DNA of 64,000 nt, from contig DASPLQ010000012.1 in the NCBI GenBank assembly GCA_035627515.1, positions 71,269 to 135,268 on the forward strand. Reading direction: 5' to 3'. Positions 11,297 through 47,421 of the stretch are shown one piece after another. Source of the stretch: Vitreimonas sp. (lineage in GTDB: Bacteria > Patescibacteriota > Microgenomatia > UBA1400 > PJMF01). The translations under genes were made by a program, and so were the position numbers. How positions within the stretch are numbered: position 1 is the stretch's first letter; every line of letters begins with the position of its first letter. Under the pieces are notes generated by a model. The model made no database searches. It was given only the letters and a program-made list of their open reading frames with translations, and was not told the origin of the DNA.

Positions 11297-11350
11297 ATTT
11301 TTTTGATTGTATGAATATTAGCAAAAATCATACAATGCACAAGAATGAGG
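11291..11350. repeat. ~60 bp duplicated block of the parD 5' region and operator; second copy at 32092-32150
   Basis: gctcatatttttttgattgtatgaatattagcaaaaatcatacaatgcacaag matches gctcatgtttttttgtttgtatgaatattggcaaaaatcatacaactgacacaa. Confidence 0.6.
11307..11335. repeat. Palindromic element family, copy 1: TTGTATGA-ATATTAGCAAAAA-TCATACAA, overlapping the parDE promoter
   Basis: 8 bp inverted arms around a 13 nt asymmetric core. The core gives TAATAT on the minus strand as a -10, and TTGTGC lies 16 nt upstream at 11337-11342. The copy sits 11-39 nt upstream of the parD ATG. Confidence 0.6.
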
Positions 11351-11609
11351 ATTTTTGAGTAGGTTGCTTCGTGCTTTCCTCGATAAGTTAGAGATCAAAA
11401 ACGTAATTTACAACAAGCTAACATTAAACTGAGGGCTGTTGAATTATCTAAGCACGCAACGAACAATTAATTCTTGCGCACCACATACGCATCTGCTATA
11501 TTTCCCGTCAGTATGGTTACTACCCTTACCTATCGCCATTTTACTTTTGATTGGACCGACGCGGTGGGGATTGGTGTTGCCTAATATTAATTTATAAATG
11601 CACAATCAA

Positions 11610-11632
11610 CCCCACCACCCGGTGGGGTTTTT
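11610..11632 (+). terminator. Putative intrinsic terminator hairpin (CCCCACC-ACCC-GGTGGGG plus a T-run)
   Basis: 7 bp GC-rich stem, 4 nt loop, then TTTTT. Sits on the plus strand in the parD-tyrS intergenic region; a tiny 24-codon ORF (11513-11587) precedes it. Confidence 0.4.
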
Positions 11633-11908
11633 GGTTGTGGAGAAAGGGACATATGTCCATCTGTAGACAAGAAGGTAATGGAGCACCACCACTGGCTGCT
11701 ATTAGTTACTTAAATAGAAATAAAGAACGAGTTTTTTCACAAAAACCAATTAATGAACAAAAGGCCCAACCCAAGCAAGTCAGTAGTGAAGACTGGGCCT
11801 TAATAGTAGGTATGGCCCAAGTGGTAAGAGAAAACAGAGGTGATCAAAGAAAAATGTCAGGAGTTGTGTATAGTCGAGATTAAAAAAAAGCTTATAATCA
11901 AAAAAGTT

Positions 11909-13111
11909 ATGCAATCCTCAGATTCATCTTCTTTACCACCGGTCCTCACCCGCGGAGTGAGTGAAGTGTTACCATCAGCTAAAACACTGGCAGACTTGAT
12001 GTCACAACGAAAAATTCGCGTCTACATCGGCATTGATCCCACGGGCGCATTTTTGACCTTGGGCCACTCAGTGGGTTTGCGTAAACTGCAACAATTTGCC
12101 GATTTGGGACATGATGTAATTTTGTTGATCGGCAACGGGACCGTCAAGATAGGTGACCCGACTGGCCGTGACACCACTCGACCAGTGTTAAGTGAGGAAC
12201 AAATTGAGGAAAACTTCAAACATTGGCAAGCACAAGCCAGCAAAGTTTTGGATTTTTCCAAAATTCGGGTTTTGCGCAATGGAGATTGGCTCGACAAATT
12301 AACGTACAGCGATATGGTTAAACTGATGGCTCAGACCACTGTGCAGCAATTAATCGAGCGCGACATGTTCCAAGAGCGTGTTAAAAAAGGCCTGCCTATT
12401 TTTGGACATGAAATTATGTATCCATTGTTACAAGGTTATGACAGTGTAGCCATGGATGTGGATTTGGAAATTGGGGGCACTGACCAAACCTTCAATATGA
12501 TGATGGGTCGCCATTTACAAAAAGTCTATAACAATCGTGAGAAATGGGTACTCAGCACACCCATCATTAATGGCACTGATGGTCGGAAAATGAGTAAATC
12601 CTATGGCAACTATGTGGCTCTCACTGACGAACCCAATGACATGTTTGGCAAACTAATGCGCATCACTGATGACATGATCATTGAGTACTTTACGCTCTTA
12701 ACTGATGTGTCCAGTGATGAGATTGCGGAGATGGACAAAGCCATAGCTGCCGGCGAAAATCCCATGACCTTCAAAAAGCGCTTAGCCTTCACCATTACCG
12801 AAATGTATCATGATACCGCCGCCGCTACCGCTGCCCAAGACTTTTTTGCTAAAGCTGTGCAGGAAAAGGAAGTGCCTGAAGATATTCCTACTGTCAACGT
12901 AAATGAGTCATCACTAACCATCTTAAGTTTAGTGAAAGCTTGTTTAGAAACTGAGAGTAATAGCAACCTCCGCCGGCTCATCGAACAAGGTGGCGTAGAA
13001 CTCTTACCGGCTGGCGAAAAACCTACCGATCCTAATCAAATCATCGACCTGCAAAGTGTAGAGGTCATCCGAGCTGGTAAACGAAAATATTTTAAAATTA
13101 ATCTCACTTAA
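11909..13111 (+). CDS. tyrS: Tyrosyl-tRNA synthetase
   Basis: HIGH-type motif region GIDPTGAFLTLGHSVG, KMSKS motif, and a C-terminal S4-like domain. The likely start is ATG 11909 (MQSSD...) rather than the longer ORF start at 11840. Confidence 0.85.
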   Translation: MQSSDSSSLPPVLTRGVSEVLPSAKTLADLMSQRKIRVYIGIDPTGAFLTLGHSVGLRKLQQFADLGHDVILLIGNGTVKIGDPTGRDTTRPVLSEEQIEENFKHWQAQASKVLDFSKIRVLRNGDWLDKLTYSDMVKLMAQTTVQQLIERDMFQERVKKGLPIFGHEIMYPLLQGYDSVAMDVDLEIGGTDQTFNMMMGRHLQKVYNNREKWVLSTPIINGTDGRKMSKSYGNYVALTDEPNDMFGKLMRITDDMIIEYFTLLTDVSSDEIAEMDKAIAAGENPMTFKKRLAFTITEMYHDTAAATAAQDFFAKAVQEKEVPEDIPTVNVNESSLTILSLVKACLETESNSNLRRLIEQGGVELLPAGEKPTDPNQIIDLQSVEVIRAGKRKYFKINLT

Positions 13112-13217
13112 CTTATTAATATGACAAAACGCACTCGCCAAATTATTATCAAAGTCTTCGCCATTACTACGATCATTTTCATGATTGCGGGCAGCGTCAT
13201 CAGCGCGTGGCTAGGAG

Positions 13218-14912
13218 TTAGTTACTAACTCGCTTCAAAAGTCGAAAATCTGCTGTTTCTAACACTGGCACATAATGAAGATCGATATAGCTGAAGAGCT
13301 CTGCTAATCGTTGTTTATCTAGGTCAGCTTCAGGTTCTACATACCCAGGTTTTTGTACCACTATATACGTGGTTTGCTCAGTCTCTAAATGAATAATCAT
13401 CCGCGTCTGGTCCTGGGCACGAAATGTTTCATGGTAAAAAAGTGTGTCAAAGCTACTACTCGGCATCTCTAAGATAAAGTTGATCAATGGGCAGTAGGGA
13501 AGACAAACGAGTGTTTCGTCAATATCACTATACTGCATTAAATAGGTTCGCAACTGAATAAAGTTTTCTTCCTCGCGGGGAGAAATATGTAAGCCTGTTA
13601 AGCTTGGAACTGCACTTTTCACCGTCTCTGGCAAACGATACACCCCAAAAAATAACGTGTACTCACGAACCGGACCAATTAAAAATGGCAGTGTGTAGAG
13701 GACTACCAAAGCTGCACAATTAAGGTTAATATGCCACTCTGCCCACGGTGTTTTTTGAAACCAATCTACCACCAATGGCAATAATAAAGGTGCGGTCAAA
13801 ATAATAGCTGCAGATTCATACCCCGAAGCAATCGAACCAAAATAAGTCATCAGTAATAAGCTGGCCCATGCCCATACTACATAATTTTTACTTCGGCTCC
13901 AAAAGCCTGTCAGCGCTACTGATACACAGGCCGTCAAAAAAACAACAGAGTGGTAATAAAAAAGTGATTGTCCAAGATAATCAAACAAGCGACCAATGCG
14001 CCGGGGATTATTACCCAAATAAAGAGTAATTACAGCCACAGCTATCAGTAGCAACCAAGCTCGGTACTGATTTTTTAGTCTCATGAATACTGCAGTTGCG
14101 GCAATAATCAGCACACTAAAAATCATGCGGTTGCGCAAAAAAGCTACGGCGTGAGCTTTGACGCTAACTGAAAACAAAAAGCAGTAATAGAGTAACTCAT
14201 CGAGTGCTCCTTGAGTGGCAAAGTAAACTCCTACCAGCACTAAAATAAAAATCACACCTCCCATCACCCAGATAGCATCAACTAAACTCTTTTTAAACTC
14301 TGCTAGTTGCCAACGATCATTGAAGGTTGGCTTACTTACTATCAGTGCCACTACTGCAGGCACTATCAACAAACCATAGGTTTGTTTACTGAGCATAACC
14401 AACGCTAAGGTTACACCCAACATAAATAACTGTAATCGACGGGCGCGTGGAGAAGTTGACTGATTCATCAATCTTAATAGCTGCAAAAGCGCGGCCATAA
14501 TAAACACCAATGCATACGTGTTGTAAAACGCAAATCCTCCCGGCCAAACCCACATTAAGGCAGTCCCAGACAAGACTAGTAACTGATTAAGCCGTGATAG
14601 TTTGAGATAAGGCGTTGAAATATAAACAAGCGTCAGCAGTAATAAAGTCATTACTACATAACTTACTCTCCCCACCAGAAAAACTTCACCAAATACTTTC
14701 ATCAACCCCGCTTGAAAGTAGTAACTGGCGGGGGCAATCGGGGTCATGAAATCACGGTAAGGAAGCTTGCCATCTAAAATCAGATGCGCATTATTAATCG
14801 CAAAACCTTCGTCGCGATAACTGAGAGCCTTATTAAACACGGGTAGCTGGAAAACTAAAAATAAAATGAGACTAAAAATCAAGGGTTGTGAAAGGAGAGT
14901 TCGGAAAGGCAT
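13218..14912 (-). CDS. GT-C glycosyltransferase, family 39 (PMT/ArnT-like)
   Basis: 564 aa with ~12 TM segments. First loop carries the DE motif (LSYRDEGFAINNAHLILDGKLPYRDF) typical of PMT/ArnT-family mannosyl- or arabinosyltransferases. Confidence 0.5.
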   Translation of the reverse strand: MPFRTLLSQPLIFSLILFLVFQLPVFNKALSYRDEGFAINNAHLILDGKLPYRDFMTPIAPASYYFQAGLMKVFGEVFLVGRVSYVVMTLLLLTLVYISTPYLKLSRLNQLLVLSGTALMWVWPGGFAFYNTYALVFIMAALLQLLRLMNQSTSPRARRLQLFMLGVTLALVMLSKQTYGLLIVPAVVALIVSKPTFNDRWQLAEFKKSLVDAIWVMGGVIFILVLVGVYFATQGALDELLYYCFLFSVSVKAHAVAFLRNRMIFSVLIIAATAVFMRLKNQYRAWLLLIAVAVITLYLGNNPRRIGRLFDYLGQSLFYYHSVVFLTACVSVALTGFWSRSKNYVVWAWASLLLMTYFGSIASGYESAAIILTAPLLLPLVVDWFQKTPWAEWHINLNCAALVVLYTLPFLIGPVREYTLFFGVYRLPETVKSAVPSLTGLHISPREEENFIQLRTYLMQYSDIDETLVCLPYCPLINFILEMPSSSFDTLFYHETFRAQDQTRMIIHLETEQTTYIVVQKPGYVEPEADLDKQRLAELFSYIDLHYVPVLETADFRLLKRVSN

Positions 14913-14971
14913 CGGTGGCGAGTATACGTCATTCTACGGTTGAGTAAAGGATCGTCAAGTATTATCGCTAT

Positions 14972-15046
14972 GACGTGGGCTCGGCAGGCGCTAGGCAGAG
15001 TTGATACCTCATGTCTACCGGGTTCAACTCCCGGCGGGTCCACGTC
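14972..15046 (+). ncRNA. tRNA-like structured element; possible tRNA 3'-half remnant inside a small RNA
   Basis: Canonical T-arm CCGGG-TTCAACT-CCCGG followed directly by an acceptor-like 3' strand CGGGTCC plus discriminator A. A 12 bp closing helix GACGTGGGCTCG/CGGGTCCACGTC is present, but no D or anticodon arm can be drawn. A long-range inverted repeat AGAGTTGATACCTC (14997-15010) / GAGGTATCAACTCT (15097-15110) brackets it, and an intrinsic terminator follows at 15121-15147. Confidence 0.35.
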
Positions 15047-15120
15047 AGATAAATTGATTTTGCGAAAATAAAATGATAAAATTAATGTATTGAGGTATCA
15101 ACTCTCTAGCACTGATTAAC

Positions 15121-15147
15121 AGCCACCTTCACCAGGTGGCTTTTTTG
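15121..15147 (+). terminator. Rho-independent terminator (AGCCACCT-TCACC-AGGTGGCT-TTTTTT)
   Basis: Perfect 8 bp stem, 5 nt loop and 6 T. It is plus-strand specific and ends a plus-strand transcript that can only start in the 14913-15120 intergenic region. Confidence 0.7.
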
Positions 15148-15195
15148 TCCCTGAACTTGTCCCACCTCACCTTCCTAGTGTACAGTGACACCAGC

Positions 15196-17229
15196 ATGTA
15201 TACGTTCGAAACACCACTGACACAAGTGACAGGCATCGGTACCAAACTGGCTACCGAGCTAAGTAAAAAAAATATCTTCACCGTCAAAGATTTAGTGCTG
15301 TTTGTGCCTCTCCGATATGAGGATAAATCGCATTTAGTCGAAATCGATACCGCCCCTATCAACGAATTAATCACGCTCCAAGCCCAGGTAGTCACCACCA
15401 GTAACTACTATAAAGGCCCTCGTTCAATTCAATCAGCCACCATTTCAGACGGGACAGGAAAATTAAAAGTGATGTGGTTTAATAACCGCTTTATTTTAGA
15501 TAAGTTGAAGCGGGGAGAGAGCTACTTTTTCAGTGGCAAAATCAATACCTATAAAACCTTAGTCCAACCCGCTGTAGAAGATGTCAAAGCGGAGACGCTC
15601 CATACCAACCGCCTGGTGCCGTTGTATTCGAGTGTATTGAACTTTAAACAAGGCAGCATTCGCCGCATCTTGAAACACATTTTGGATGGCTTGAACATTG
15701 CCGATACCGAAGTAGAAGCTGCACTCCAGAACTTAGCTCTGACTCATTTTCCTCAGCTAGCTCCTACGCTCAAACAACTTCATTTTCCTGACTCCGAAAA
15801 TACAATCGCCCCTGCCCGGGAGCGGCTCGCGCTCGAAGAACTTTTGGGCTTGATGAAAAAATCGTTTGCGATTAAAGAAACCTGGAAACAAGATAAACAT
15901 GCGCCCGCAATCACTGTCAAACTAGGGGAGCGAGTGATTCCGGCTTCAGTTCCCTTTGAGTTAACCGCAGCCCAGTATCGAGTGGTGGGGGAAATCATGG
16001 CCGATATTGCCCAAACCACACCGATGAATCGATTGTTAGTAGGTGACGTGGGCTCGGGAAAAACGGTGGTGGCTGGTGTGGCAGGTTTGCACACCCTTCA
16101 AGCTGGCTATAACGTGGGCTTAGTGGCCCCGACGCGCATTTTGGCTGAACAACACGCAGAAACTCTGACGAAACTATTTCCCAATCTAAACATCGAGCTG
16201 GTGCTAGCTGCCAGAAAAATTTCTGCTAACTCTAAAAAAGTAGCCGCTCCCACAGCGACTACGCCTACGTTTTATGTGGGCACGCACGCTTTAATTAACC
16301 GCTTCCCTCAGCTTAAGCCCGGCTTAATCATTTATGACGAACAACATCGCTTTGGGGTTGCACAACGCTCGGCTGCTGATCAACTCCTCCAACCACATCC
16401 CCACATCTTGACCATGTCTGCCACGCCCATTCCGCGTAGTTTGATGTTAACAATCTTTTCTCACTTATCACTGAGTGTGATTGATGAAATGCCGCGTGGT
16501 CGCCAACCTATTAAAACGTGGGTGGTGCCAGAAAGTAAACGCACCAGTTCCTATCAATGGATGGCTACTGAAATACAGCAACAGCATTCACAGGTGTTAG
16601 TGGTCTGTCCGTTTATTGATCCGTCTCATTCACAGGCTTTGGAAAATGTGGCGGCGGTGACTGAACGCTTCGAAGCTATTAAAACGTTTTTCGCCCACCA
16701 AGATAAAGCGGTGCGGGTAGAGTTGCTGCATGGCCGGATGAGTAAGGCCACTCAAAGTGAGATTACGGAGCGGCTGTATCAGCGCCAAATTGATGTCCTT
16801 GTTACCACCCCGATTGTGGAGGTAGGAGTTGATTTGCCGGCAGCTAGCGTCATCGTCATCGAGGCCGCGGAGCGGTTCGGTTTAGCCAGCTTGCATCAAC
16901 TGCGCGGCCGGGTGGGGAGGGCTGGGCAGCAAGGTTATTGTTTACTGTTCAGTACTTCAAAGTCAGAGAGTGCCCAAGAACGCCTCCAAAAGTTCTGTAC
17001 TACTACCAATGGCGCCGAGTTGGCTGAACTCGATTTACATAATCGCGGAGCAGGAGATATTTTTGGGACTCAGCAACATGGCTTCGAACAACTGCAGTTT
17101 GCCAGCTGGACTAATGCGGAGTTAATTGCCCAAGCCCGACAGGTTTTTGAGTACGTCAATCAGCAGCCTACCTGGCAGCCATTATTACTTACCACCGAGA
17201 GTGATGACCAGGCACCACTGGCTAATTAG
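15196..17229 (+). CDS. recG: ATP-dependent DNA helicase RecG
   Basis: Wedge-domain N-terminus. Walker A LVGDVGSGKTVVA, DEQHRFGV box, and helicase C motifs HQLRGRVGR. Likely start at ATG 15196 (MYTFETPL...). Confidence 0.85.
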   Translation: MYTFETPLTQVTGIGTKLATELSKKNIFTVKDLVLFVPLRYEDKSHLVEIDTAPINELITLQAQVVTTSNYYKGPRSIQSATISDGTGKLKVMWFNNRFILDKLKRGESYFFSGKINTYKTLVQPAVEDVKAETLHTNRLVPLYSSVLNFKQGSIRRILKHILDGLNIADTEVEAALQNLALTHFPQLAPTLKQLHFPDSENTIAPARERLALEELLGLMKKSFAIKETWKQDKHAPAITVKLGERVIPASVPFELTAAQYRVVGEIMADIAQTTPMNRLLVGDVGSGKTVVAGVAGLHTLQAGYNVGLVAPTRILAEQHAETLTKLFPNLNIELVLAARKISANSKKVAAPTATTPTFYVGTHALINRFPQLKPGLIIYDEQHRFGVAQRSAADQLLQPHPHILTMSATPIPRSLMLTIFSHLSLSVIDEMPRGRQPIKTWVVPESKRTSSYQWMATEIQQQHSQVLVVCPFIDPSHSQALENVAAVTERFEAIKTFFAHQDKAVRVELLHGRMSKATQSEITERLYQRQIDVLVTTPIVEVGVDLPAASVIVIEAAERFGLASLHQLRGRVGRAGQQGYCLLFSTSKSESAQERLQKFCTTTNGAELAELDLHNRGAGDIFGTQQHGFEQLQFASWTNAELIAQARQVFEYVNQQPTWQPLLLTTESDDQAPLAN

Positions 17230-17315
17230 CCTGGTAATTGTCTTTCCACTCAAGACACGGTACAATACCTGTCTGTCAAAAGACTGAACTCACGCTCAAA
17301 CATCAAAGGAGACTT

Positions 17316-17645
17316 ATGGGAGCCCTACCAAAGAATAAAATCACTCGCGCTGAACAAGGTGCCCGCCGCCATGGCAACACCCCCAAATTGCAAAAAGACA
17401 GTAACAGTTCAATCCCCATGCACAAGCAAGGCTTTGTCGCTCAATTCATGAAGTTTATCGGCGCTGCTCCTGCCACCGCTGACAAAACCAATGATAAAGC
17501 AGAGTCTCGAGAAGCCAAAAAAGCTGCCAAAGCCGCCGAGCTGAGCTCGGTTGCCGGCACCAAAGCTGCTCCACAAGCTCGTGGTAAAGCTACTAATGCT
17601 TCAGCTCCTATCAAAGGCGTGCGCAAAGCTCAACACAAAGGGTAA
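17316..17645 (+). CDS. rpmF: Ribosomal protein bL32-like with an Ala/Lys-rich C-terminal extension
   Basis: MGALPKNKITRAEQGARRHGNT fits the bL32 N-terminal pattern A-x-x-x-N-K-x-T-R-x-x-x-G-x-RRH. RBS aaaggagac upstream. The tail AKKAAKAAELS...KAQHKG is histone-like. Confidence 0.35.
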   Translation: MGALPKNKITRAEQGARRHGNTPKLQKDSNSSIPMHKQGFVAQFMKFIGAAPATADKTNDKAESREAKKAAKAAELSSVAGTKAAPQARGKATNASAPIKGVRKAQHKG

Positions 17646-17669
17646 ACTTTTTACCACTATAATCGTGTC

Positions 17670-18146
17670 ATGACTTCACCTGACCTGGGTTTATATTTTC
17701 GCACCGCCAACCAGGATGATTTAGATATCATCGTGACGCTTAACTCTCAGTTCAATTTGGCGATGCCAAATTTTTACTGGGATCAGCCTGAGTGGGTATC
17801 TACCCAGATTGAACACGCTCGCTACTTTGTACTCATTAACCCTGATAACCTTGTCATTGGCGCCATCTGTTTAACACCCCTCACCGACACCAATCAATTA
17901 AACTTGGAAACGTTAGCCATCAACCCTCAGCATCATGGCCAAGGCTTGGGTAAAAAGATGATTGAGTTCGCTAAGCAAAAAGCTCTGGAAGGTAGGTGTG
18001 AATCATTGATTGTCGAAACCTTCCAATGTTATAAACTCGAAGCCTTTTATCTTAAGTGTGGTTTTAGCAAAGACGAGCCGTATATTTTATTTGAAAATGG
18101 CGAACCGTATTACCGGTTTAAGATGAAGTTGGAAGCTAAGTTATAA
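17670..18146 (+). CDS. GNAT family N-acetyltransferase
   Basis: Motif A QHHGQGLGKKMIEFAKQKA, with GNAT strand/helix layout before and after. Confidence 0.6.
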   Translation: MTSPDLGLYFRTANQDDLDIIVTLNSQFNLAMPNFYWDQPEWVSTQIEHARYFVLINPDNLVIGAICLTPLTDTNQLNLETLAINPQHHGQGLGKKMIEFAKQKALEGRCESLIVETFQCYKLEAFYLKCGFSKDEPYILFENGEPYYRFKMKLEAKL

Positions 18147-18252
18147 TTTTTAGATGACAGATTTATGCCATAATTGTGGCACGGAAAAAGTGGAGTCAAC
18201 AAATGAGAGACCTTTAACCAAAGCTCTCATCACAAAACTAGTTTGTGATACA

Positions 18253-18281
18253 TTGCGCAAATATTAACAAAAATGCCACAA
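18253..18281. repeat. Palindromic element family, copy 2: TTGCGCAA-ATATTAACAAAAA-TGCCACAA
   Basis: Same 13 nt core as the other copies, with diverged arms. Confidence 0.45.
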
Positions 18282-18288
18282 GGTTAAC

Positions 18289-18612
18289 TTAAACCTTCTT
18301 CTTCACCTTAGCTAGAATTGCTTGAGCCACCGCTCCACTAGCAGTCTTAAGATCAATTTGGGTGCTAAGTGTAGAAATATAAGCCTGACTTAAAATATAT
18401 CTCAGCTCTTCTTCTTCATGAGTGATGACGACCTCATCACTATTAAAAATTGCTTCGACTGCTTGTAACTCAGATACAGAAACCAACTCAGTCTGAATTC
18501 CAGCATATCCATAAACACTTTCTTTATTTAACGGTCTACGAATCACAGCTAAGATTGCCCTAACCTTGTCTGCAGCTGACAACTGATCAAAGGGTTTCAA
18601 ATTTTCTGACAT
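18289..18612 (-). CDS. Hypothetical small protein
   Basis: 107 aa ORF with no recognisable motif. Confidence 0.35.
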   Translation of the reverse strand: MSENLKPFDQLSAADKVRAILAVIRRPLNKESVYGYAGIQTELVSVSELQAVEAIFNSDEVVITHEEEELRYILSQAYISTLSTQIDLKTASGAVAQAILAKVKKKV

Positions 18613-18762
18613 TTTTCTCCTTAAATGAAAGTGCGGGCATTATAGCAAAGCAAACTTAGGTTCAACCCTTGACACTCATCTCCAAACCGACTTGAATACA
18701 GAGAGGGGAACGACCTCTAGATTTTACTCTTGCTTTATTAATAAAAATCGATACTATATCTT

Positions 18763-19167
18763 ATGACAGATACATCGCAGTTGAGTAACCAAACGCCGCC
18801 CAACCAGGCAAATGATCAAGAAAATCTTGATCCTCGTCATCAAAAGCGCATAGCCATGATGCAAGCCTTGTTTGCGTTTAGTTTCCACCAATCGCCATCA
18901 GACGACAGCTTTACGGACATTGCTGAGATCATAGAAGTGCTGCCTGAGCTGGATCAAGAGATCCAATCGACAGCCCCTGAGCGACCGCTAAGTGAAATTA
19001 ACAAAGTTGACCTTGCAATCCTACGCTTAATTGTGTTTGAATCTAAGCGGAAGAAGACACCTAAAAAAGTGTTAATTAATGAAGCGGTAGAGTTAGCTAA
19101 GGAATTTGGGACAGACAGTTCGCCCCGGTTTGTAAATGGTGTGTTAGCTCATCTTTTTGCGGTGTAA
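18763..19167 (+). CDS. nusB: Transcription antitermination factor NusB
   Basis: [15 protein letters not shown]...AILRLIVFE...[32 protein letters not shown] matches the NusB signature. The promoter TTGCTT-16-TACTAT lies 5 nt before the ATG, so the mRNA may be leaderless. Confidence 0.75.
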
Positions 19168-19187
19168 CGAATGAAAAAAGGACCTTT

Positions 19188-19475: not shown

Positions 19476-19493
19476 ACCTTACTCGCAAGCCAT

Positions 19494-20156: not shown

Positions 20157-20170
20157 TACAATCCCTTCCT

Positions 20171-20596: not shown

Positions 20597-20630
20597 TTAC
20601 CCAGTACTAAGTAGCATCAGTTTTTGACAC

Positions 20631-20903: not shown

Positions 20904-20970
20904 TTTTTTCCTGTAAGAATGCTTTGTCTGTGAAAAAATATCCTTGTTAGTGGACTATTATTTCTAACTG

Positions 20971-21033
20971 CTTCTCAAAAAGTGAATTTTCTGTACGTTG
21001 TGCGGTTTTTGTTAATATCCGCACAATGAAAGA
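20971..21033. repeat. ~63 bp repeat block containing palindromic element copy 3 (20998-21026); duplicated at 47358-47421
   Basis: cttctcaaaaagtgaattttctgtacgTTGTGCGGtttttgttaatatCCGCACAAtgaa matches gtgctcaaaaagtgaactttatggaggTTGTGCGGtttttgttaataaTCGCACAAtgaa. Confidence 0.65.
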
Positions 21034-21129
21034 GGGGCTTTATTGTGGCTGGTGATGGTTATTAAGAGAGCTTAGCGTTACCTTACCTCTCCCTCTCTCG
21101 CAAAGTACCCTTCCTCAAAACACTCACTT

Positions 21130-21175
21130 TCACAGTGGCACAATTAGTGCACAATCGTGCCACAAAAATGCCACC
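21130..21175. repeat. Motif B copy (imperfect): CAGTGGCACAATTAGTGCACAATCGTGCCACAAAAATGCCACC
   Basis: Related to the 37867-37940 and 43471-43542 copies, which carry the perfect palindrome TAGTGCAC-GATC-GTGCACTA. Confidence 0.5.
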
Positions 21176-31966: not shown

Positions 31967-32009
31967 AAGTGATTTTCCTCTGAAGGTAATTTTTCTTTGC
32001 TCAGTAAGG

Positions 32010-32045
32010 TGTGTGTCATTTTTGTGCACTATTTATGCCAGTGTA
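32010..32045. repeat. Motif B partial copy (right half: GTGCACTATTTATGCCA)
   Basis: Identical to the right half of the 43471-43542 copy. Confidence 0.4.
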
Positions 32046-32091: not shown

Positions 32092-32150
32092 GAGCTCATG
32101 TTTTTTTGTTTGTATGAATATTGGCAAAAATCATACAACTGACACAAAAC
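32092..32150. repeat. Orphan copy of the parD promoter/operator block, containing palindromic element copy 4 at 32110-32138
   Basis: TTGTATGA-ATATTGGCAAAAA-TCATACAA. It includes the parD ATG and two codons, but the frame stops after 12 codons. Confidence 0.55.
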
Positions 32151-32205: not shown

Positions 32206-32234
32206 TTGTGCGGATATTAACAAAAACCGCACAA
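32206..32234. repeat. Palindromic element family, copy 5: TTGTGCGG-ATATTAACAAAAA-CCGCACAA
   Basis: Perfect 8 bp arms around the conserved 13 nt core. Confidence 0.6.
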
Positions 32235-32473
32235 GCTATAAGAAGTTCATTTTCTGACGTATAAACTCGAAGACAGTTTAACTACTTATAGGAAAAAATG
32301 CCCATATTCTTAAAGGCTTTCACTCCACACACTTTCAAACCACCTTCACTCTTGCCCTCCAAAAACCCTGGTGTCACTTTGTGTCTACTTTAAGCACCTT
32401 TTAGGCACACTTATTGCCACACAAAAAAACTCCTTACGTAACCTTCCAAATTCCTCTACAATCACTTTATAAG

Positions 32474-37629: not shown

Positions 37630-37866
37630 AGGCAGTACCTCAGGGTTTATTAGTTATCTACTAGAGTACAACAAAATGAGTAAATAAGTAAATAAGTAAT
37701 TAAAGATGCTGCAAAAGTCAGCCTGGGAGATGTACATTTTGTCATGTATCCAGGGTCACTTTTGAAGAGAACGTTAATAAGTGAGTGGTGGTTAGAATCA
37801 ATCTGAAGAGTTGATAATCCTGAAGCGTCAAAACAGTATCATTACTTTTACCTCCTCATCTCGTTA

Positions 37867-37940
37867 GGTACCTGTCCTCCAGAACACACTTTTTACTGTG
37901 GCATATTTAGTGCACGATCGTGGCACATTTATACTACAGT
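37867..37940. repeat. Motif B copy containing the palindrome TTAGTGCACGATCGTGGCAC, ~240-310 bp upstream of pilA
   Basis: GGTACCTGTCCTCCAGAACAC...CTGTGGCATATTTAGTGCACGATCGTGGCACATTTATACTAC. About 75 bp, ~85% identical to 43471-43542. Confidence 0.6.
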
Positions 37941-39253: not shown

Positions 39254-39264
39254 AGTACTTCAGC

Positions 39265-40329
39265 TTACTTCAATCTGGAACCACCCAGGCGATCAAACTC
39301 ATCAGGGCGGAAGGCATACTCGCGAGCTTTTTCGGCAGTGATCACCCCCCGTTGGACCAAGGTTAATAAGTAACTTTCAAATAAGGTCATACCGGCTTCA
39401 GATGAGGTTTGAATGACGTTATCAATTTGGAAGGTTTTGCCTTCCCGAATCAAGTTCCGGATAGCTGGCGTGCCCACCAAAATTTCTAAGGCTGCCACCC
39501 GGCCTCCAGAAGAAATTGGTAACAACCGCTGCGTGACGATAGCTTGGATCGAAGCGGCTAGCTGTTGGCGAATCTGAGCTTGCTGATGAGCGGGGAAGAC
39601 GTCAATGATACGGTCAATGGTTTGGGCCGCAGACGAAGTATGGAGCGTGCCAAACACTAAGTGACCTGTCTCCGCCACGGTCATGGCAGCAGCAATGGTT
39701 TCGAAGTCGCGCATTTCACCTACCAGCACCACGTCGGGGTCTTCCCGCAATGCTGAGCGCAAAGCAATATCCCAGCCATGCGTATCTTGATTGATTTCAC
39801 GCTGCGAAATAATACTTTTATTAGGGGTGTACACAAACTCGACTGGATCTTCAATCGTCAAGATATGCTCACTACGCGATTGATTGATGTACTCAATCAG
39901 GGCAGCCAAGGTCGTGGATTTACCTTCACCGGTGGGTCCAGTGACCAATACCAAACCTTGTTTAAACTTGGCAAACTCATACAAGATAGGAGGGAGCTGT
40001 AACTCTTCGATGGTTTTAATCCGAGTGGGAATCAACCGCAACGAGGCAGCTAGATTGCCGCGCTGATGATAAATGTTGACCCGGAACCGACCTTTATCTT
40101 TATATTGATACCCAAAGTCAATTTCTTTGTTGACGGTCACATAATCTTTTTGTTCAGGTGTCATCAGAGGAAAAATCAAGGTCTCGGCTTCTTTGGCACT
40201 CAGTGCCGGAGTACCTTCTACGGGCTTAAGCTCACCATGGACACGCAGCATGGGTTGCAAACCTGTAATGATGTGAATATCAGAACCTTCTTGTTCAATC
40301 ACCATTTGTAGAATGTCGTGTATGTTCAT
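39265..40329 (-). CDS. pilT: Twitching motility retraction ATPase PilT
   Basis: Walker A LVLVTGPTGEGKSTTLAA, DVVLVGEMRDFETI, and the His box GHLVFGTLHTSSAAQTIDRI. At 354 aa it is PilT-sized. Confidence 0.85.
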   Translation of the reverse strand: MNIHDILQMVIEQEGSDIHIITGLQPMLRVHGELKPVEGTPALSAKEAETLIFPLMTPEQKDYVTVNKEIDFGYQYKDKGRFRVNIYHQRGNLAASLRLIPTRIKTIEELQLPPILYEFAKFKQGLVLVTGPTGEGKSTTLAALIEYINQSRSEHILTIEDPVEFVYTPNKSIISQREINQDTHGWDIALRSALREDPDVVLVGEMRDFETIAAAMTVAETGHLVFGTLHTSSAAQTIDRIIDVFPAHQQAQIRQQLAASIQAIVTQRLLPISSGGRVAALEILVGTPAIRNLIREGKTFQIDNVIQTSSEAGMTLFESYLLTLVQRGVITAEKAREYAFRPDEFDRLGGSRLK

Positions 40330-40350
40330 ATGCGGTCTTCCTGACGGTAG

Positions 40351-42492
40351 TTATACCTGGGCCACGCGTAAAACTTCTTCAATTGTGGTCAACCCTTGCA
40401 AGGCTTTGAGATATCCATCTTGTTTCATTAATAACATCTTATCTTTTACCGCTGCTTTTTCCAACTCCGCAGCGCTTTTGTTTTCCATAATCAAACGACT
40501 AATTTCTTCATTCACTTTCATCACTTCATAAATACCCACCCGACCCCGATACTCAGGTTCAGTTTGTGGTCGATCACTTTTACATCTAAAAAGGGTGAAG
40601 TTGTTGGGATCTTTGTTGTTCTGTTTACACCACTGATCGAGACGATCACCTAATACTTGCTTGATGTCTTCCACCACCGCTTGTTCCGGTTTGTACTCTT
40701 CTTTGTAATCATTATTGATCGTCCGCACAATACGCTGGGCCATCGTCAGGGTAATAGATGACGCCAGCAAGAACGGCTCAGCGCCCATATCCACCAACCG
40801 AGGTAATGCTCCCGCCGCTGAGGAGGTGTGCAGGGTAGAGAAGACTAAGTGACCTGTCAGTGACGCTTGCACAGCTAGTTCTACAGTTTCACTATCCCGA
40901 ATTTCTCCCACCATGATCACGTTGGGATCTTGCCGCAAAAACGACCGCAAGCCCGAAGCAAATGTCAGTCCCGCCTGAGGATTAATCTGAACTTGGTTAA
41001 TACCAGCCATTTGATACTCTACCGGATCTTCCAAGGTCATGATATTGACCTTAGGCGTATTAATTTTGTGTAACACGGAGTAGAGAGTGGTGGTTTTACC
41101 GGAACCGGTAGGACCAGTCACGAGCACAATTCCGTGAGGCACCCGGATCGAATCTTCCAGTTTGCGCAAGGCAAGACCTTCCAAACCGAGATCATTGAGT
41201 GATGGCACCGTTGAGTTCTTTTTCAGCAACCGCATCACGATTTTTTCACCGTGAATAGTCGGCAACGTCGAGACCCGCAAATCCACTTCATCACTACCCG
41301 AAATAAAGGTAAACCGGCCGTCCTGAGGCACACGCTTTTCGTCAATTTTCAGATCTGACAAGATTTTCACGCGTGAAACAACGGCTTCGTGGACTGATTT
41401 GGGCAAAATTAATTTTTCAGTCAATAAACCGTCAATCCGGTACCGTACCCGTGTCCGGCTGGGCTGGGGTTCGATATGAATATCTGAAGCCCGCGCTTTC
41501 ATAGCGAAGGCCAGGATCGTTTCCACAATTTTAGTGATGGGCGCCTGACGCACCACTTCACCCGACAAAGCGGCTAGATTATCAAGTTGCTTTTTAGTTT
41601 CTTGGACTTGGTTAGTTTCTTTGAGTGCCTGGGTGACTTCACTCGACAAACTTTGGGCGTACCGCTCGGCAATCAACCGCTCTAGCTCAGACGGCATCGC
41701 ATAATGCACAATGAGGTTGTAGCCACTTTTTTGTTCAGCAAAATCAATCGCCAACAAATCCAAGGGATCCTTCATCGCCACTGATAAGGTCCGGTCTTGT
41801 TTACTGAGGGTGAAGGGGAACATGCCATAGCGACGCGCCACACCTTCGGGGAGTTGAGTCAAGGCCTCAGGCGAGACACCAATTTCTTCCAGTCGCACAA
41901 AAGGCACTTTATAGAAGGTCGATTTAGCTTTGGTCAATGCCTCTTCTGAAACCACATTTTTCTCTTCCAGAATTTTTTCGTACGGCACGCCAGTTTGGAT
42001 ATGCTCCAGCTCTACCTGATTAGCATCTTGCTCACTCAAATCGCCAGCAGTGCGCAAGATCTCTAAAATACTGCTGGCCGTGGTGGAAGCTGGCTCAACC
42101 ACCGCACTGGCTGGTGAAGTAACTGGAGTGGGAAGTGGAGCTGGTGGGGTAGCAGCAGGAATCGAAACCACTGGTGATTCGGGCAAAGGTCCTAAACTCG
42201 GAGCCGGCATAGCTTCAGGCAACTCGCCTGGAGAAGTAATCGAAGCTGCTGGAGGGATATTGATGGGGGTAGGCTCAGAACTAGGCACGGCTGCTAAACC
42301 CACCACTTCTGGAGAGGTGAAAGTGGGATTGATCAGCGGTGTGGGTTCTGCAGATTCAGAGGTAGCAGAAGAAACTACCGAGCTACCTGGTAAAGCATTG
42401 CCGGCTTCATCAAGCATTTGCACGACTGCGGTGTCAAGCGAGTCAGCCGCAGCCACATCGATGACTGGTAGATTTTGGGCAGGATCATTCAT
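40351..42492 (-). CDS. pilB: Type IV pilus extension ATPase PilB (GspE family) with a ~150 aa Pro/Ala/Ser/Thr-rich N-terminal extension
   Basis: GIVLVTGPTGSGKTTTLYSVL, VIMVGEIRDSETVELAVQASLTGHLVFSTLHT, and a GspE N-domain. Confidence 0.85.
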   Translation of the reverse strand: MNDPAQNLPVIDVAAADSLDTAVVQMLDEAGNALPGSSVVSSATSESAEPTPLINPTFTSPEVVGLAAVPSSEPTPINIPPAASITSPGELPEAMPAPSLGPLPESPVVSIPAATPPAPLPTPVTSPASAVVEPASTTASSILEILRTAGDLSEQDANQVELEHIQTGVPYEKILEEKNVVSEEALTKAKSTFYKVPFVRLEEIGVSPEALTQLPEGVARRYGMFPFTLSKQDRTLSVAMKDPLDLLAIDFAEQKSGYNLIVHYAMPSELERLIAERYAQSLSSEVTQALKETNQVQETKKQLDNLAALSGEVVRQAPITKIVETILAFAMKARASDIHIEPQPSRTRVRYRIDGLLTEKLILPKSVHEAVVSRVKILSDLKIDEKRVPQDGRFTFISGSDEVDLRVSTLPTIHGEKIVMRLLKKNSTVPSLNDLGLEGLALRKLEDSIRVPHGIVLVTGPTGSGKTTTLYSVLHKINTPKVNIMTLEDPVEYQMAGINQVQINPQAGLTFASGLRSFLRQDPNVIMVGEIRDSETVELAVQASLTGHLVFSTLHTSSAAGALPRLVDMGAEPFLLASSITLTMAQRIVRTINNDYKEEYKPEQAVVEDIKQVLGDRLDQWCKQNNKDPNNFTLFRCKSDRPQTEPEYRGRVGIYEVMKVNEEISRLIMENKSAAELEKAAVKDKMLLMKQDGYLKALQGLTTIEEVLRVAQV

Positions 42493-42528
42493 GAGTCACC
42501 TACTATAATACTGTAGATCAACCCTATC

Positions 42529-43227
42529 ATGCCACGGTCATTTTTTACGCCCTATTTATTAATTTCTACTGTCTCACAGCCACCTCGTGAGTTAGTGCAG
42601 CAGTTCTTGAGCCAGCACCCCGAGCTGCCGCAGCTATCACTGACCCATCCCAATGTGATGGTCATTAATGAAGAGAGCGAAGGCCTCAAAATTGAAACTC
42701 TCCGTAACCTCCTATCAGAGTTGGCACTAATGCCGCCGGTGCCTGGCTCCCGGCTGGTGGTAATTGCCGGGTTCGAGACCGCTCAACCAGTTGCTCAACA
42801 AGTCTTGCTGAAAACGTTGGAAGAACCACCCTCAGATACACTGATACTTTTGATTACCCAAACACTAGAAGCCATTTTGCCAACCATCCAATCCCGGTGC
42901 CGCAGCGAGCGGGTGGGGGACACGACTGCCGGAAATCAGCGCGATGCCGCCAGTGCTCAATCCACCGCTATCCAGCCCTTGTTGGAGTTACTCAAAACGG
43001 GAAATTACAGCGACCTGATTAAGACTGTCGAAAAAATTTCTGAACGCGAAGAAGCAGTCAATCTTGTATCTGAGTTAGTTCGGCAGTATCAGACTCAGCT
43101 TACTCAGCGTGGTACTCCAGAAGTGATGAAAGTGCTTCTTACCGCCAGCGATCATCTCAAAACCAATGCCAATGTGAAGCTGATACTAGAGAACGCGTTG
43201 TTCAGAATTAGGAAGGTCTCTGGGTAG
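42529..43227 (+). CDS. holB: DNA polymerase III delta-prime subunit-like clamp loader protein
   Basis: LLKTLEEPP and TIQSRC motifs, with no intact Walker A. 232 aa. Confidence 0.65.
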   Translation: MPRSFFTPYLLISTVSQPPRELVQQFLSQHPELPQLSLTHPNVMVINEESEGLKIETLRNLLSELALMPPVPGSRLVVIAGFETAQPVAQQVLLKTLEEPPSDTLILLITQTLEAILPTIQSRCRSERVGDTTAGNQRDAASAQSTAIQPLLELLKTGNYSDLIKTVEKISEREEAVNLVSELVRQYQTQLTQRGTPEVMKVLLTASDHLKTNANVKLILENALFRIRKVSG

Positions 43228-43238
43228 GCTGATGGTGG

Positions 43239-43267
43239 CTGTACCATTTTTGTTAATAATCGCACAA
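43239..43267. repeat. Palindromic element family, copy 6 (left arm degenerate): CTGTACCA-TTTTTGTTAATAA-TCGCACAA
   Basis: Core and right arm match copy 7 at 47385-47413. Confidence 0.5.
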
Positions 43268-43330
43268 TGAAAAAAGAGTAGCTCAACGTAACTCACTATC
43301 CATGTGCAAAAGCTCGCCTGGATGATGTAA

Positions 43331-43380
43331 AAATGTACGTTTTGACTGTAATGACGTGTGCCCAGGGGAACTTCTGTAGT
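43331..43380. repeat. Motif C copy: ATGTACGTTTTGACTGTAATGACGTGTGCCCAGGGGAACTTCTGTAG
   Basis: Second copy at 47213-47272, ~90% identical over ~50 bp. Confidence 0.6.
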
Positions 43381-43470
43381 GATGGTGATTAAGTGAGCTT
43401 GTCATCGCCTTTAAGAAAATAATAAAAAGGTGTCAAAGAGGTGCCTACATTTTACCTTTCAGCTCACCTT

Positions 43471-43542
43471 CGGTACCTGTCCTCCAGACATCATTTTCAC
43501 AGTGACATATTTAGTGCACGATCGTGCACTATTTATGCCACC
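43471..43542. repeat. Motif B copy with the perfect 20 bp palindrome TAGTGCAC-GATC-GTGCACTA
   Basis: CGGTACCTGTCCTCCAGACATCATTTTCACAGTGACATATTTAGTGCACGATCGTGCACTATTTATGCCACC. Confidence 0.6.
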
Positions 43543-43704
43543 AGCTTTTCAGACTGCCCAACCACATACCTTCACCAACCTCCAGGTCAAAAAACTATAT
43601 GCCGCAAAAAACTAAAACACCTTACAAAGAAATAAACCACACTACAACTCAATTAAAAACAGCCCGCTCACCTCACCTCTATCATCAACCCACCCGTATA
43701 CCGG

Positions 43705-43732
43705 CTTTGACCAACGGTGAAAATGTGGTATA
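43705..43732 (+). promoter_or_regulatory. Putative sigma70-type promoter of gyrB with an extended -10 (TTGACC-16-TGG-TATAAC)
   Basis: Hexamers TTGACC and TATAAC 16 nt apart, TG at -15/-14, ~115 nt upstream of the gyrB ATG. Confidence 0.45.
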
Positions 43733-43753
43733 ACGATCATCTGAAGTAATTAA

Positions 43754-45877
<2,124 letters not shown>

Positions 45878-45936
45878 GAATATTTTTCCTTTCAACGAAG
45901 GTTTAATAGAATCAAGTAGCTGCTCTAAAGGATCTT

Positions 45937-46281
45937 ATGGAAAGACCAAAAAATATTGCTGATGCCCTTGAAGTTATTATCAATAACCCTGAACATTCGC
46001 TTATATTTTTAGGATTATTAGACTTAAGATCACGTGATGAGTTAGAAACAAAAGAAATTTCTCAAGCTGAATTACAAGGCGCAATCGCTCAAGCTTTTAT
46101 CGCAGCCGTAAAAATCCCTCACCCTGACTCACAAAAAGTGCAATTCTTGATCGAAACCGTTCAACATTTCTTGGCACCTTCAAGGTTAGATGGTATGTCA
46201 ATGCTTTCTGATGAGCAGTTCGAAGAAGTTAAAGCCGGCAAAATTCCTGAACAGGGCAAACGGTTCTCTTCAGGTCGCTAA
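45937..46281 (+). CDS. Hypothetical small protein
   Basis: 114 aa ORF in the AT-rich gyrB-ppa spacer. Confidence 0.35.
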   Translation: MERPKNIADALEVIINNPEHSLIFLGLLDLRSRDELETKEISQAELQGAIAQAFIAAVKIPHPDSQKVQFLIETVQHFLAPSRLDGMSMLSDEQFEEVKAGKIPEQGKRFSSGR

Positions 46282-46316
46282 TCTCAGACAAAAAATAACT
46301 ATAGTATAATTCAGCC

Positions 46317-46580
46317 ATGAGTAACTCTTTAGATTCAGAAAGCAGAGCTTCACAAGTGCGGTTCCTTAAAACACTGTGGACTGAGAAAAGCTTTGAACAT
46401 TTTAAGGCATTAATGATAAACATGATTCCTACCATAAATGCTGAGAATATTCCTGATACAGATAGTTTTATCTCAGCTTTAGATGAGCTCTATCAGCAAG
46501 ATGAAAACTCACCACAAGGAGCAGTTAGTAAGGCCTTCTTACAGTTGCTAGGTGTTATTCCACTGAACAATGAGGAGTAA
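46317..46580 (+). CDS. Hypothetical small protein
   Basis: 87 aa ORF. Confidence 0.3.
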   Translation: MSNSLDSESRASQVRFLKTLWTEKSFEHFKALMINMIPTINAENIPDTDSFISALDELYQQDENSPQGAVSKAFLQLLGVIPLNNEE

Positions 46581-46599
46581 TAATAAATAAAGGAGACGT

Positions 46600-47094
46600 A
46601 TGTCCGATATCATTCACGTTTTAGTTGAAATCCCTGCTGGCTCAAACGTTAAGTATGAGCAAGATGAAGAAACCGGCCGCATCTACGTGGACCGTTTCGT
46701 GCCGACCCCGATGATGTATCCTGAAAATTATGGTTCTATCGAAGGTGCCAAAGGCAAGGATGGCGACTTACTCGATGCCTTACTCCTTACCAGTCAACCT
46801 GTCATGCCAGGGATGTGGATGAAAGCTCGCGTGATTGGGATGTTAGAGATGGAAGATGAAGAGGGTATTGATCATAAATTAGTGTGTGTCCCCGCTAAAG
46901 CCAAACAAGACATCATCTGCGGTGCTTGGGAAGAGCTCTCCGATGTCCCTCAATACCGCTTAGATAAACTCAAGCACTTTTTCGAACACTACAAAGATCT
47001 CGAAAAAGACAAATGGGTTAAGATCAATAAATTTGTGGGTAGAGAAGAGGCCTTAAAAGAATTGGCTGAAGCTCAAAGTAAGATGGGTGCATAA
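46600..47094 (+). CDS. ppa: Inorganic pyrophosphatase (family I)
   Basis: DGDLLDALLL (DxDPxD-like) and an N-terminal VEIPAGSNVKYE.. fold. RBS aaaggagac upstream. Confidence 0.85.
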   Translation: MSDIIHVLVEIPAGSNVKYEQDEETGRIYVDRFVPTPMMYPENYGSIEGAKGKDGDLLDALLLTSQPVMPGMWMKARVIGMLEMEDEEGIDHKLVCVPAKAKQDIICGAWEELSDVPQYRLDKLKHFFEHYKDLEKDKWVKINKFVGREEALKELAEAQSKMGA

Positions 47095-47117
47095 GATTAT
47101 CGGCATTATCACTTAAT

Positions 47118-47152
47118 CAAGTAAAGGGCTCGTTCAAAACGGGCCCTTTTTG
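47118..47152 (+). terminator. Putative intrinsic terminator after ppa (GGGCTCG-TTCAAAA-CGGGCCC plus TTTTT)
   Basis: 7 bp stem with one G-U pair, followed by a T-run. Confidence 0.45.
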
Positions 47153-47212
47153 CTTGTTTGGTTATGCAGTTTTAATAATGGTTTTTACTGAATTTAGCCT
47201 GGAGAGTGTGCG

Positions 47213-47272
47213 AAATGTACAGACTGTACGTTTTGACTGTAATGACGTGTGTCCAGGCGAACTTTTGAAGAG
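47213..47272. repeat. Motif C copy
   Basis: AAATGTACAGACTGTACGTTTTGACTGTAATGACGTGTGTCCAGGCGAACTTTTGAAG. Contains an internal ACAGACTGTAC duplication relative to copy 1. Confidence 0.6.
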
Positions 47273-47357
47273 AGTGTGAGAGCTGTGAGTGAAAGCCTTT
47301 AAGAATGTTGATTAATGGGCGGGAAAAAAGGGTCTTATCTTTTTTGTTTGACAGTGT

Positions 47358-47421
47358 GTGCTCAAAAAGTGAACTTTATGGAGGTTGTGCGGTTTTTGTT
47401 AATAATCGCACAATGAATAAG
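47358..47421. repeat. ~63 bp repeat block containing palindromic element copy 7 (47385-47413): TTGTGCGG-TTTTTGTTAATAA-TCGCACAA
   Basis: See the 20971-21033 copy. Confidence 0.65.

Follow-up and report, generated by a model that had tools for sequence, protein, structure and literature searches.

We analyzed a 64-kb stretch of DNA (hereafter, the window) from a 1.41-Mb bacterial genome deposited under the name Vitreimonas sp. (GenBank contig DASPLQ010000012.1, positions 71,269 to 135,268), in which a 29-nt element – here termed P – recurs in the spacers between genes. On balance, we lean towards the view that P is the core of a dispersed repeat of ~65 bp, confined to this lineage and equipped with an extended -10 promoter of the sigma-70 type. 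One copy, at position 11307, lies where it would drive an antitoxin–toxin operon, and the remaining copies appear to be orphans. We infer transcription initiation, repressor binding, and the way of spreading from the sequence. All copy counts given below refer to the window.

P is a discrete family of intergenic repeats

The original prediction described seven copies of a 29-bp palindromic element. We searched the window for the corresponding degenerate 29-mer, allowing at most three mismatches, and recovered exactly those seven sites (Table 1). In the orientation of the consensus used in that prediction, the strands of the seven matches are, in order of position, + + - + + - -. We read the anatomy of P on the opposite strand – the one that points at parD, the antitoxin gene beside the 11307 copy – and number the hexamer within the element -12 to -7.

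Several comparisons show that this family does not arise by chance. Not a single 29-mer match was found in 100 dinucleotide-preserving shuffles of the window, and the 13-nt core alone was observed seven times against 0.44 matches expected. In a search with an nhmmer profile of all seven copies, the copies score 30–42 bits and the next best site in the window 8.6 bits. This gap in scores implies that P is a discrete family, without degenerate extra copies in the window. The density of P is ~1 copy per 9 kb (7 in 64 kb); every copy is intergenic.

Although the 29-mer stands as a repeat, it is not the full repeated unit, which extends over ~65 nt (-52 to +12). Copies, including the one at parD, share an A-tract (CTCAAAAA) at -51 to -44 and an A-rich stretch past +1. 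The 8-bp inverted arms attributed to the element are likewise only partly general: they are completely complementary in four copies and degenerate to different degrees in the other three (Table 1).

A promoter-like core between variable arms

Read in the direction of parD, copies of P have the form TTGTGCGG-TTTTTGnTAATAT-CCGCACAA, followed by TGAA or TGTA. Two arm types can be distinguished. Type A arms (TTGTATGA on the left and TCATACAA on the right) are present in the 11307 and 32110 copies, and type B arms (TTGTGCGG and variants of it) are present in the other five. The arms lie at -27 to -20 and -6 to +2, with their centers 21 bp apart.

The 13-nt core between the arms, TTTTTG-n-TAATAT, is composed of a T-tract, a TG dinucleotide, one free base, and a TAnnnT-type hexamer. 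TTTTTG is invariant at -19 to -14, and its TG corresponds to the dinucleotide of an extended -10 promoter. The sole core base that varies freely is -13, the n of TGn, which the original consensus had written as R. At -12 to -7, the hexamer reads TAATAT in four copies, TAATAA in two (where a shifted AATAAT reading is possible), and CAATAT in one. CCGCACA follows the hexamer and leads to an A ~7 nt downstream, usually the A of an ATG, at the expected start site. In all five type B copies, an ATG stands at this predicted +1, 7 nt after the -10 box, with no gene following it.

These features resemble extended -10 (TGn) sigma-70 promoters, in which a TG lies one base before the hexamer, the spacer upstream is T-rich, and a -35 box is not needed; we identified no conserved -35 box among the P copies. 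P differs from such promoters in that TAATAT matches TATAAT at only four of six positions and three copies are altered at -12 or -7. We also considered a promoter in the opposite orientation, with TTAACA as the -35 box, and rejected it: the hexamer 16–18 nt downstream differs in every copy, leaving no conserved -10 box.

The pattern of substitutions differs between core and arms. Relative to the type B consensus, 5 of 91 core positions and 24 of 112 arm positions are substituted (Fisher p=0.001), and the same trend holds within the type B copies alone (2/65 versus 12/80; p=0.02). The core is thus ~5 times better conserved than the arms, and positions -19 to -14 and -11 to -8 are invariant in all seven copies. 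Predicted hairpin energies range from -10.8 to -11.0 kcal/mol in the 20998, 32206, and 47385 copies, through -6.1 in 11307 and 32110 and -3.0 in 18253, to 0 in 43239, and the hairpin is lost in two of the seven copies (18253 and 43239). The stronger conservation of the core, taken with this loss, suggests that the constrained part of P is the promoter-like core and not a stem-loop. Wobble pairs favor one strand in the 43239 copy and the other strand in the 47385 copy, which argues against a consistent RNA hairpin. Types A and B are separated by three changes that are mirrored on both arms, suggesting that dyad symmetry was kept through the change, and both types have the outer bases TTGT...ACAA in common.

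Extended -10 motifs elsewhere in the window

The window is 88% coding. It contains 23 TGnTAnnnT motifs that match TATAAT at five or more of six positions, and 11 of these fall within the non-coding 12% (p=2.5e-5). Such motifs precede the PBP1 gene, a 107-aa gene, a 183-aa gene, and the tRNA-Ala gene by 1–27 nt. Several genes have a -10-like box 5–8 nt before the ATG (e.g., TACTAT and 5 nt at 18763, TGATATAGT and 6 nt at 48029, TATAAT and 6 nt at 46317), and Shine-Dalgarno sequences are rare. This intergenic enrichment and closeness to gene starts suggest that the genome uses extended -10 promoters with very short or absent leaders. The P module, including its ATG at +1, fits this promoter grammar. 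The case for a promoter at 11307 is stronger because its core can be recognized as TGnTAATAT, a type enriched in the intergenic DNA of this genome.

The 11307 copy and a toxin–antitoxin operon

Only the 11307 copy lies in the promoter of an antitoxin–toxin operon. Its predicted placement there was borne out: on the minus strand, TAATAT occupies 11315-11320 and the -35-like TTGTGC lies 16 nt upstream (11337-11342), and the parD ATG is 11 nt from the element. This ATG comes 18 nt after the -10 box. The 11307 module would serve as the operon promoter and leave a leader of 11 nt, in which no Shine-Dalgarno sequence is present.

The genes behind this copy had been named parDE. They do encode a ribbon-helix-helix (RHH) antitoxin and a toxin with a RelE/ParE fold, but the pair is better described as an RHH antitoxin and a RelE/ParE-superfamily toxin. 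The antitoxin has an N-terminal RHH signature and matches RHH_1, CcdA, and ParD_antitoxin in addition to TIGR02606, all below the curated cut-offs. The toxin matches ParE_toxin over its full length, but only at E=0.04. A single-sequence model of the toxin (pLDDT 76) has the order beta-alpha-alpha-beta-beta-beta, and its top ~40 fold matches in the PDB are all YafQ, ParE, YoeB, or RelE toxins, with TM-scores of 0.5–0.7. Sequence searches of solved structures were uninformative.

The arms at 11307 form a perfect palindrome, with 8-bp arms spaced by whole helical turns (centers 21 bp apart), and type A arms place GTAT and ATAC 21 bp from each other. In the FitAB operator, 8-bp inverted half-sites are ~14 bp apart. 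Dimers of the Vibrio cholerae antitoxin ParD2 recognize GTA[C/T] motifs at intervals of ~10.5 bp in an operator of 33 bp, which overlaps the promoter (PMC10776004). The GTAT and ATAC of type A match this motif, and P resembles the three-site ParDE2 operator in having short motifs on one helix face, whole-turn spacing, and promoter overlap (PMC10776004). P differs in being a seven-copy repeat, whereas operators of RHH antitoxins are normally unique to their own promoter, and the antitoxin here is sub-threshold to ParD models. From their sequence, the type A arms at 11307 are plausible as an antitoxin or antitoxin–toxin operator, and GTAT...ATAC would provide the binding sites for autorepression. 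The original prediction, which deemed this operator role almost certain, goes too far.

A geneless duplicate of this promoter had also been reported and was readily confirmed: 32076-32147 matches 11272-11342 over 73 nt with 84% identity. The 32110 copy within it keeps the parD ATG and ~8 codons, with no gene behind them.

Orphan copies of P

The other copies had been described as lying in convergent or long intergenic regions. Convergent genes do flank P at three loci (18253, 20998, and 47385), but two loci (32110/32206 and 43239) lie between co-directional genes and one (11307) between divergent genes. The 18253 copy starts 7 nt past the stop codon of a co-oriented 107-aa gene and is aimed at the 3' end of a GNAT gene. 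The 43239 copy starts 12 nt past the stop codon of holB, 583 nt before gyrB. Predicted transcripts from 18253, 20998, and 47385 run into the 3' end of the convergent gene, those from 32206 and 32110 are antisense between two co-directional genes, and that from 43239 heads for gyrB across 583 nt. At best, the orphan copies would fire as stray or antisense promoters, and the 43239 copy may add to gyrB transcription.

Three explanations had been offered for these copies – orphan ParD operators, a general promoter module, or a hairpin resembling repetitive extragenic palindromic (REP) elements or miniature inverted-repeat transposable elements (MITEs). Among them, the evidence favors the promoter module, carried by a dispersed repeat. 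The five type B copies are unlikely to be ParD operators, as their arms differ from the parD type at three of eight positions, mirrored on both sides, and type B should escape recognition by a protein that is specific for type A. A REP-like hairpin is disfavored by a loop that is far better conserved than the stem. Searches with Rfam, at gathering and permissive thresholds, returned nothing at P or at the X, Y, and Z blocks described below; the sole real match was the tRNA-Ala.

P is part of a mosaic of repeats

By comparing the window with itself, we identified three further repeat blocks – Z, X, and Y – that keep a constant relative order and orientation with P (Z-X-P-Y; Table 1). Y is a ~40-bp imperfect palindrome (GTGGCAYAWWTAGTGCACGA/TCGTGCAC...) with GTGSCAC motifs ~11 nt apart and no RNA covariation. 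It always lies 60–250 nt downstream of P, in the direction of P's promoter. We rejected a reading of Y as a sigma-54-like TGGCAY-N5-GTGCA site: only three of the five copies fit, and the site points into convergent genes. Z reads TGCAAAAGnnnGCCTGGnnGATGTA and X contains ...TGTAATGACGTGTGYCCAGG...; the two can pair through GCCTGG in Z and CCAGGC in X. At 47190..47305, the Z-X blocks are upstream of P. The orphan copies of P would have spread together with these blocks, entering spacers that related genomes keep short.

A second, independent assembly of this strain, which is 100% identical to the window, has contig breaks at three places: exactly where P ends (21026), within Y (43520), and within X (47254). 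The break at 21026 can be attributed to a 31-nt identity with the 32206 copy. For 43520 and 47254, no identity within the window is long enough, which suggests that further copies are present elsewhere in the genome.

Table 1. Coordinates of P copies, associated repeats, and the antitoxin–toxin genes. P strands refer to the parD-pointing direction.
Feature	Coordinates	Strand	Description
P copy	11307..11335	-	Type A, TTGTATGA-TTTTTGCTAATAT-TCATACAA on minus strand; arms 8/8 complementary; candidate promoter and operator of antitoxin–toxin operon
P copy	18253..18281	-	Type B, degenerate arms (5/8 complementary)
P copy	20998..21026	+	Type B, perfect arms (8/8); 95 nt after KhpA gene, then Y block
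P copy	32110..32138	-	Type A (8/8), geneless; duplicate of parD promoter and first codons; -10 degraded to CAATAT
P copy	32206..32234	-	Type B, perfect arms (8/8); 96 nt upstream of 32110 copy, same orientation
P copy	43239..43267	+	Type B; left arm degenerate (CTGTACCA; 4/8 complementary); -10 reads TAATAA/AATAAT
P copy	47385..47413	+	Type B (7/8 arms); after ppa, aimed at 3' end of convergent 183-aa gene
Z-X-P	47190-47413	+	Self-comparison
X-P-P'-Y	32360-32000	reverse	Self-comparison
P-Y	20998-21174	+	Self-comparison
P-Y	18281-18150	reverse	Self-comparison
P-Z-X-Y	43239-43541	+	Self-comparison
Z-X-Y without P	37707-37937		Self-comparison
Y block	21127..21174, 37890-37937, 43494-43541	+	Weaker reverse-strand copies near 32000-32045 and 18150-18190
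Z-X blocks	47190..47305, 43305-43417, 37707-37800	+	Reverse-strand X at ~32300-32360
Z alone	58340-58378, 63767-63795	reverse
RHH antitoxin gene (ParD-like, 79 aa)	11057..11296	-	TIGR02606 E=8e-7, below cut-off; NCBI name ParD family antitoxin
RelE/ParE-superfamily toxin gene (85 aa)	10816..11073	-	Overlaps antitoxin gene by 17 nt

The repeats are absent from related genomes

To place the repeats in an evolutionary context, we compared the window with five syntenic loci from four related genomes (103.5 kb in all), whose GyrB and RecG proteins are 80–84% and ~61% identical, respectively, to those of the window. Around each half of the region, gene order is conserved in the four relatives, and their spacers are short. 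The holB–gyrB spacer spans 22–192 nt in the relatives versus 622 nt in the window, and the pilin–T2SSF spacer spans 55–145 nt versus 421 nt. The ppa–gyrA spacer consists of 20 nt or one small gene in the relatives versus two genes plus 383 nt in the window, and the distance from KhpA to the next gene is -10 to 17 nt versus 327 nt.

Within the 103.5 kb of syntenic DNA, the P profile returned nothing above 6.2 bits, BLAST detected no P, X, Y, or Z, and the relatives' loci are without dispersed repeats of their own. A pattern scan of 185,579 species genomes gave two chance matches only. Scanning a metagenome collection yielded 61 chance-like matches: the most symmetric one inspected falls within a coding sequence, the arms of most others are not complementary, and no match has flanks like those of the window. 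Scans of viral contigs produced a few P matches (with non-complementary arms), a few Y matches, and no X match. The absence of the repeats from the relatives, together with the chance-like nature of the public matches, indicates that they are lineage-specific gains. As the relatives are distant (GyrB at most 84% identical), these comparisons show lineage specificity rather than recent mobility.

The PBP1–TyrRS and RecG–NusB spacers hold different genes in each relative, which marks them as sites of gene turnover.

Alternative explanations and known repeat systems

A number of observations weigh against a promoter-carrying repeat. The -35 region is weak or absent, and key -10 positions (-12 or -7) are changed in three of the seven copies (TAATAA twice, CAATAT once). 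At four of the six loci, the putative promoter faces another gene's 3' end or runs antisense to the neighbors. No conserved open reading frame (ORF) follows the orphan copies, in which the ATG at +1 is succeeded by 1–9 unrelated codons, and no structured RNA was found after the copies either, including the stretch from P to Y: RNAalifold detected no covariation, and single-sequence fold z-scores range from 0 to -2.5. Searches detected almost no homologs of the antitoxin and toxin against which the conservation of the operator could be judged. The high conservation of the core could be partly accounted for by recent copying.

These difficulties have to be set against those of the alternatives. 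P might be a selfish REP/MITE-like hairpin that spreads as a DNA or RNA stem-loop, in which case its promoter likeness would be incidental and the parD copy would be an insertion beside a toxin–antitoxin cassette. Five copies have dyad-symmetric arms and hairpins of -6 to -11 kcal/mol, and the mirrored arm changes could have arisen by intrastrand template switching. The restriction of P to intergenic DNA (three copies being between convergent genes), its embedding in a mosaic of other repeats as in bacterial interspersed mosaic elements (BIMEs) or BOX elements, its absence from relatives, and the breaks of independent assembly contigs at P, X, and Y would also be expected of a selfish hairpin. 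We nevertheless regard this explanation as unlikely. A loop ~5 times better conserved than the stem, with the hairpin lost in 18253 and 43239, is opposite to the pattern of REP elements, and wobble pairs favoring opposite strands in different copies leave no consistent RNA hairpin. We found no inverted doublets, terminal inverted repeats, or target-site duplications around the 65-nt unit (target duplications were sought in the three best-conserved copies), and no transposase or RAYT gene near the copies among the window proteins scanned. The sole close pair of P copies (32110/32206) is direct, not inverted, and no inverted pair occurs within 2.7 kb.

Other readings fare worse. That the copies are solo relics of a larger family of toxin–antitoxin (or other small) cassettes sharing a promoter/operator, whose genes were deleted and whose promoter was left, strikes us as improbable. 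The geneless 32110 copy with its parD ATG and ~8 codons, a truncated gene start at 47430-47461 (duplicating 48205-48236) beside the 47385 copy, the ATG at the predicted +1 of all five type B copies, and gene turnover in the PBP1–TyrRS and RecG–NusB spacers all speak for such relics; yet tblastn with all window proteins revealed no antitoxin or toxin coding remnant at the other loci, and it is the shared Y repeat, not decayed genes, that lies downstream of type B copies. Slightly less probable again is a regulon in which a single trans-acting repressor, whether ParD or a global regulator, uses all seven copies as operators. Palindromic 8-13-8 half-sites two helical turns apart and centered on the -10 box, with an outer TTGT...ACAA common to both arm types, would suit a repressor. 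Against this, the arm types differ at three of eight positions, symmetry is lost altogether in two copies, most copies have no downstream gene, and the corresponding spacers in relatives have no such sites, unlike what a conserved regulon would show. We give very little credence to P as a site-specific recombination or cassette junction (Xer/dif-like or attC-like), a DNA-uptake sequence, or a terminator. P borders lineage-specific insertions and adjoins truncated gene starts, and the window contains an xerC/D-like gene and an integrase fragment; GTGCG and TTTTGTTAA also bear a loose likeness to dif arms and to the core of the Haemophilus uptake sequence. However, P has an 8-13-8 layout with an asymmetric, sequence-conserved center rather than the 11-6-11 layout of dif sites (two inverted arms of ~11 bp around a 6–8-bp spacer) or the 57–141-bp structured form of attC sites, and an uptake sequence would be expected at ~1 copy per kb, including inside genes, rather than ~1 per 9 kb with none in coding sequence. 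An intrinsic terminator, with its GC-rich stem, short loop, and trailing T-run, is at odds with the 13-nt loop, with the lack of a T-run on both strands (in the promoter direction the hairpin is followed by an A-run), and with the fact that the two copies nearest stop codons are those without a hairpin. We therefore retain the promoter-carrying dispersed repeat as the best explanation of P.

The P element itself is new but is of a familiar type, comparable to Correia or REP-type elements. The REP/BIME elements of enterobacteria and the BOX elements of pneumococcus are short intergenic palindromic units joined with other motifs in fixed-order mosaics, as P is in Z-X-P-Y. In REP elements stems are conserved and loops vary, whereas in P the center is conserved and the arms vary; moreover, the window showed neither a RAYT transposase nor inverted REPIN doublets. 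The Correia repeat-enclosed elements (CREE) of Neisseria are dispersed intergenic repeats that bring promoter parts next to genes (PMC2649163), and P resembles them in being dispersed, non-coding, intergenic, restricted to a single lineage, and putatively promoter-bearing. CREE are 70–157 bp long, with 26-bp terminal inverted repeats, a TA target duplication, and ~100–250 copies per genome. P is instead a solitary 29-bp dyad in a 65-nt unit, and neither terminal repeats nor duplications were found for it. The Correia terminal repeat, published as TATAGTGGATTAACAAAAACCGGTACGG, has the 14-mer ATTAACAAAAACCG in common with type B copies of P (PMC5039591). We treat this as coincidence or convergence on AT-rich, promoter-like sequence rather than homology, because Neisseria and Patescibacteria are unrelated and P fails the defining features of Correia elements and MITEs, namely a target duplication and terminal inverted repeats that bound a unit of 50–500 bp.

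Implications of a proposed promoter-carrying repeat

If P is a promoter-carrying repeat, even a reduced genome of 1.4 Mb can gather such elements, inflating spacers that are nearly empty in relatives. It would also offer a concrete promoter model for an uncultivated bacterium of the candidate phyla radiation (CPR) – a T-tract followed by TGn and a TAnnnT hexamer, with leaders that are very short or absent – and the toxin–antitoxin pair gains a defined 29-bp candidate operator. More tentatively, P, X, Y, and Z might constitute an undescribed family of modular non-autonomous mobile elements that insert extended -10 promoters and palindromic protein-binding sites into spacers, a possibility to which we attach some, though limited, weight. 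Such a family would rewire transcription, through antisense RNAs and new 5' ends such as that of gyrB, in a lineage usually deemed streamlined and repeat-poor. Current understanding is not overturned, as promoter-carrying dispersed repeats and palindromic toxin–antitoxin operators are both well known.

Gene content and other features of the window

Genes in the window include those for PBP1, TyrRS, RecG, NusB, RNase III, S16, and KhpA, a type IV pilus operon, holB, gyrB, ppa, and gyrA. NCBI labels the genome, a metagenome-assembled one, 'Vitreimonas sp.', an alphaproteobacterium. The nearest relatives of its GyrB and RecG are Patescibacteria/CPR, and its 1.41-Mb size and gene content agree; the label is probably wrong. 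A cyanobacterial origin was also considered and rejected, given these relatives and a window without HIP1 sites.

Upstream of a 76-aa ORF and the TyrRS gene, 11494-11652 contains an extended -10 box (TGCTATATT at 11494) and then a terminator-like hairpin at 11608-11629 (a 9-bp stem plus a T-run). The hairpin may be an attenuator; Rfam gave no T-box match for it.

Two ORFs between gyrB and ppa (45937-46281 and 46317-46580; 114 and 87 aa) have no family matches and are lacking in two of the relatives. With its TATAAT 6 nt before the ATG, the second looks leaderless. Beside the 47385 copy of P, a 32-nt direct repeat (47430-47461 / 48205-48236) duplicates, in truncated form, the start of a 61-aa ORF (48048..48233, minus strand). 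This repeat suggests a decayed tandem copy of a two-gene insert (47478..48233) that is absent from relatives.

The gene at 62557..63756 has a Z copy 11 nt before its start. A 1.9-kb AT-rich geneless stretch (56522-58407) adjoins an xerC/D-like recombinase gene (55586..56521) and holds an integrase-like pseudogene fragment at ~57333-57461 (tblastn E=0.001); this stretch is probably a decayed mobile element.

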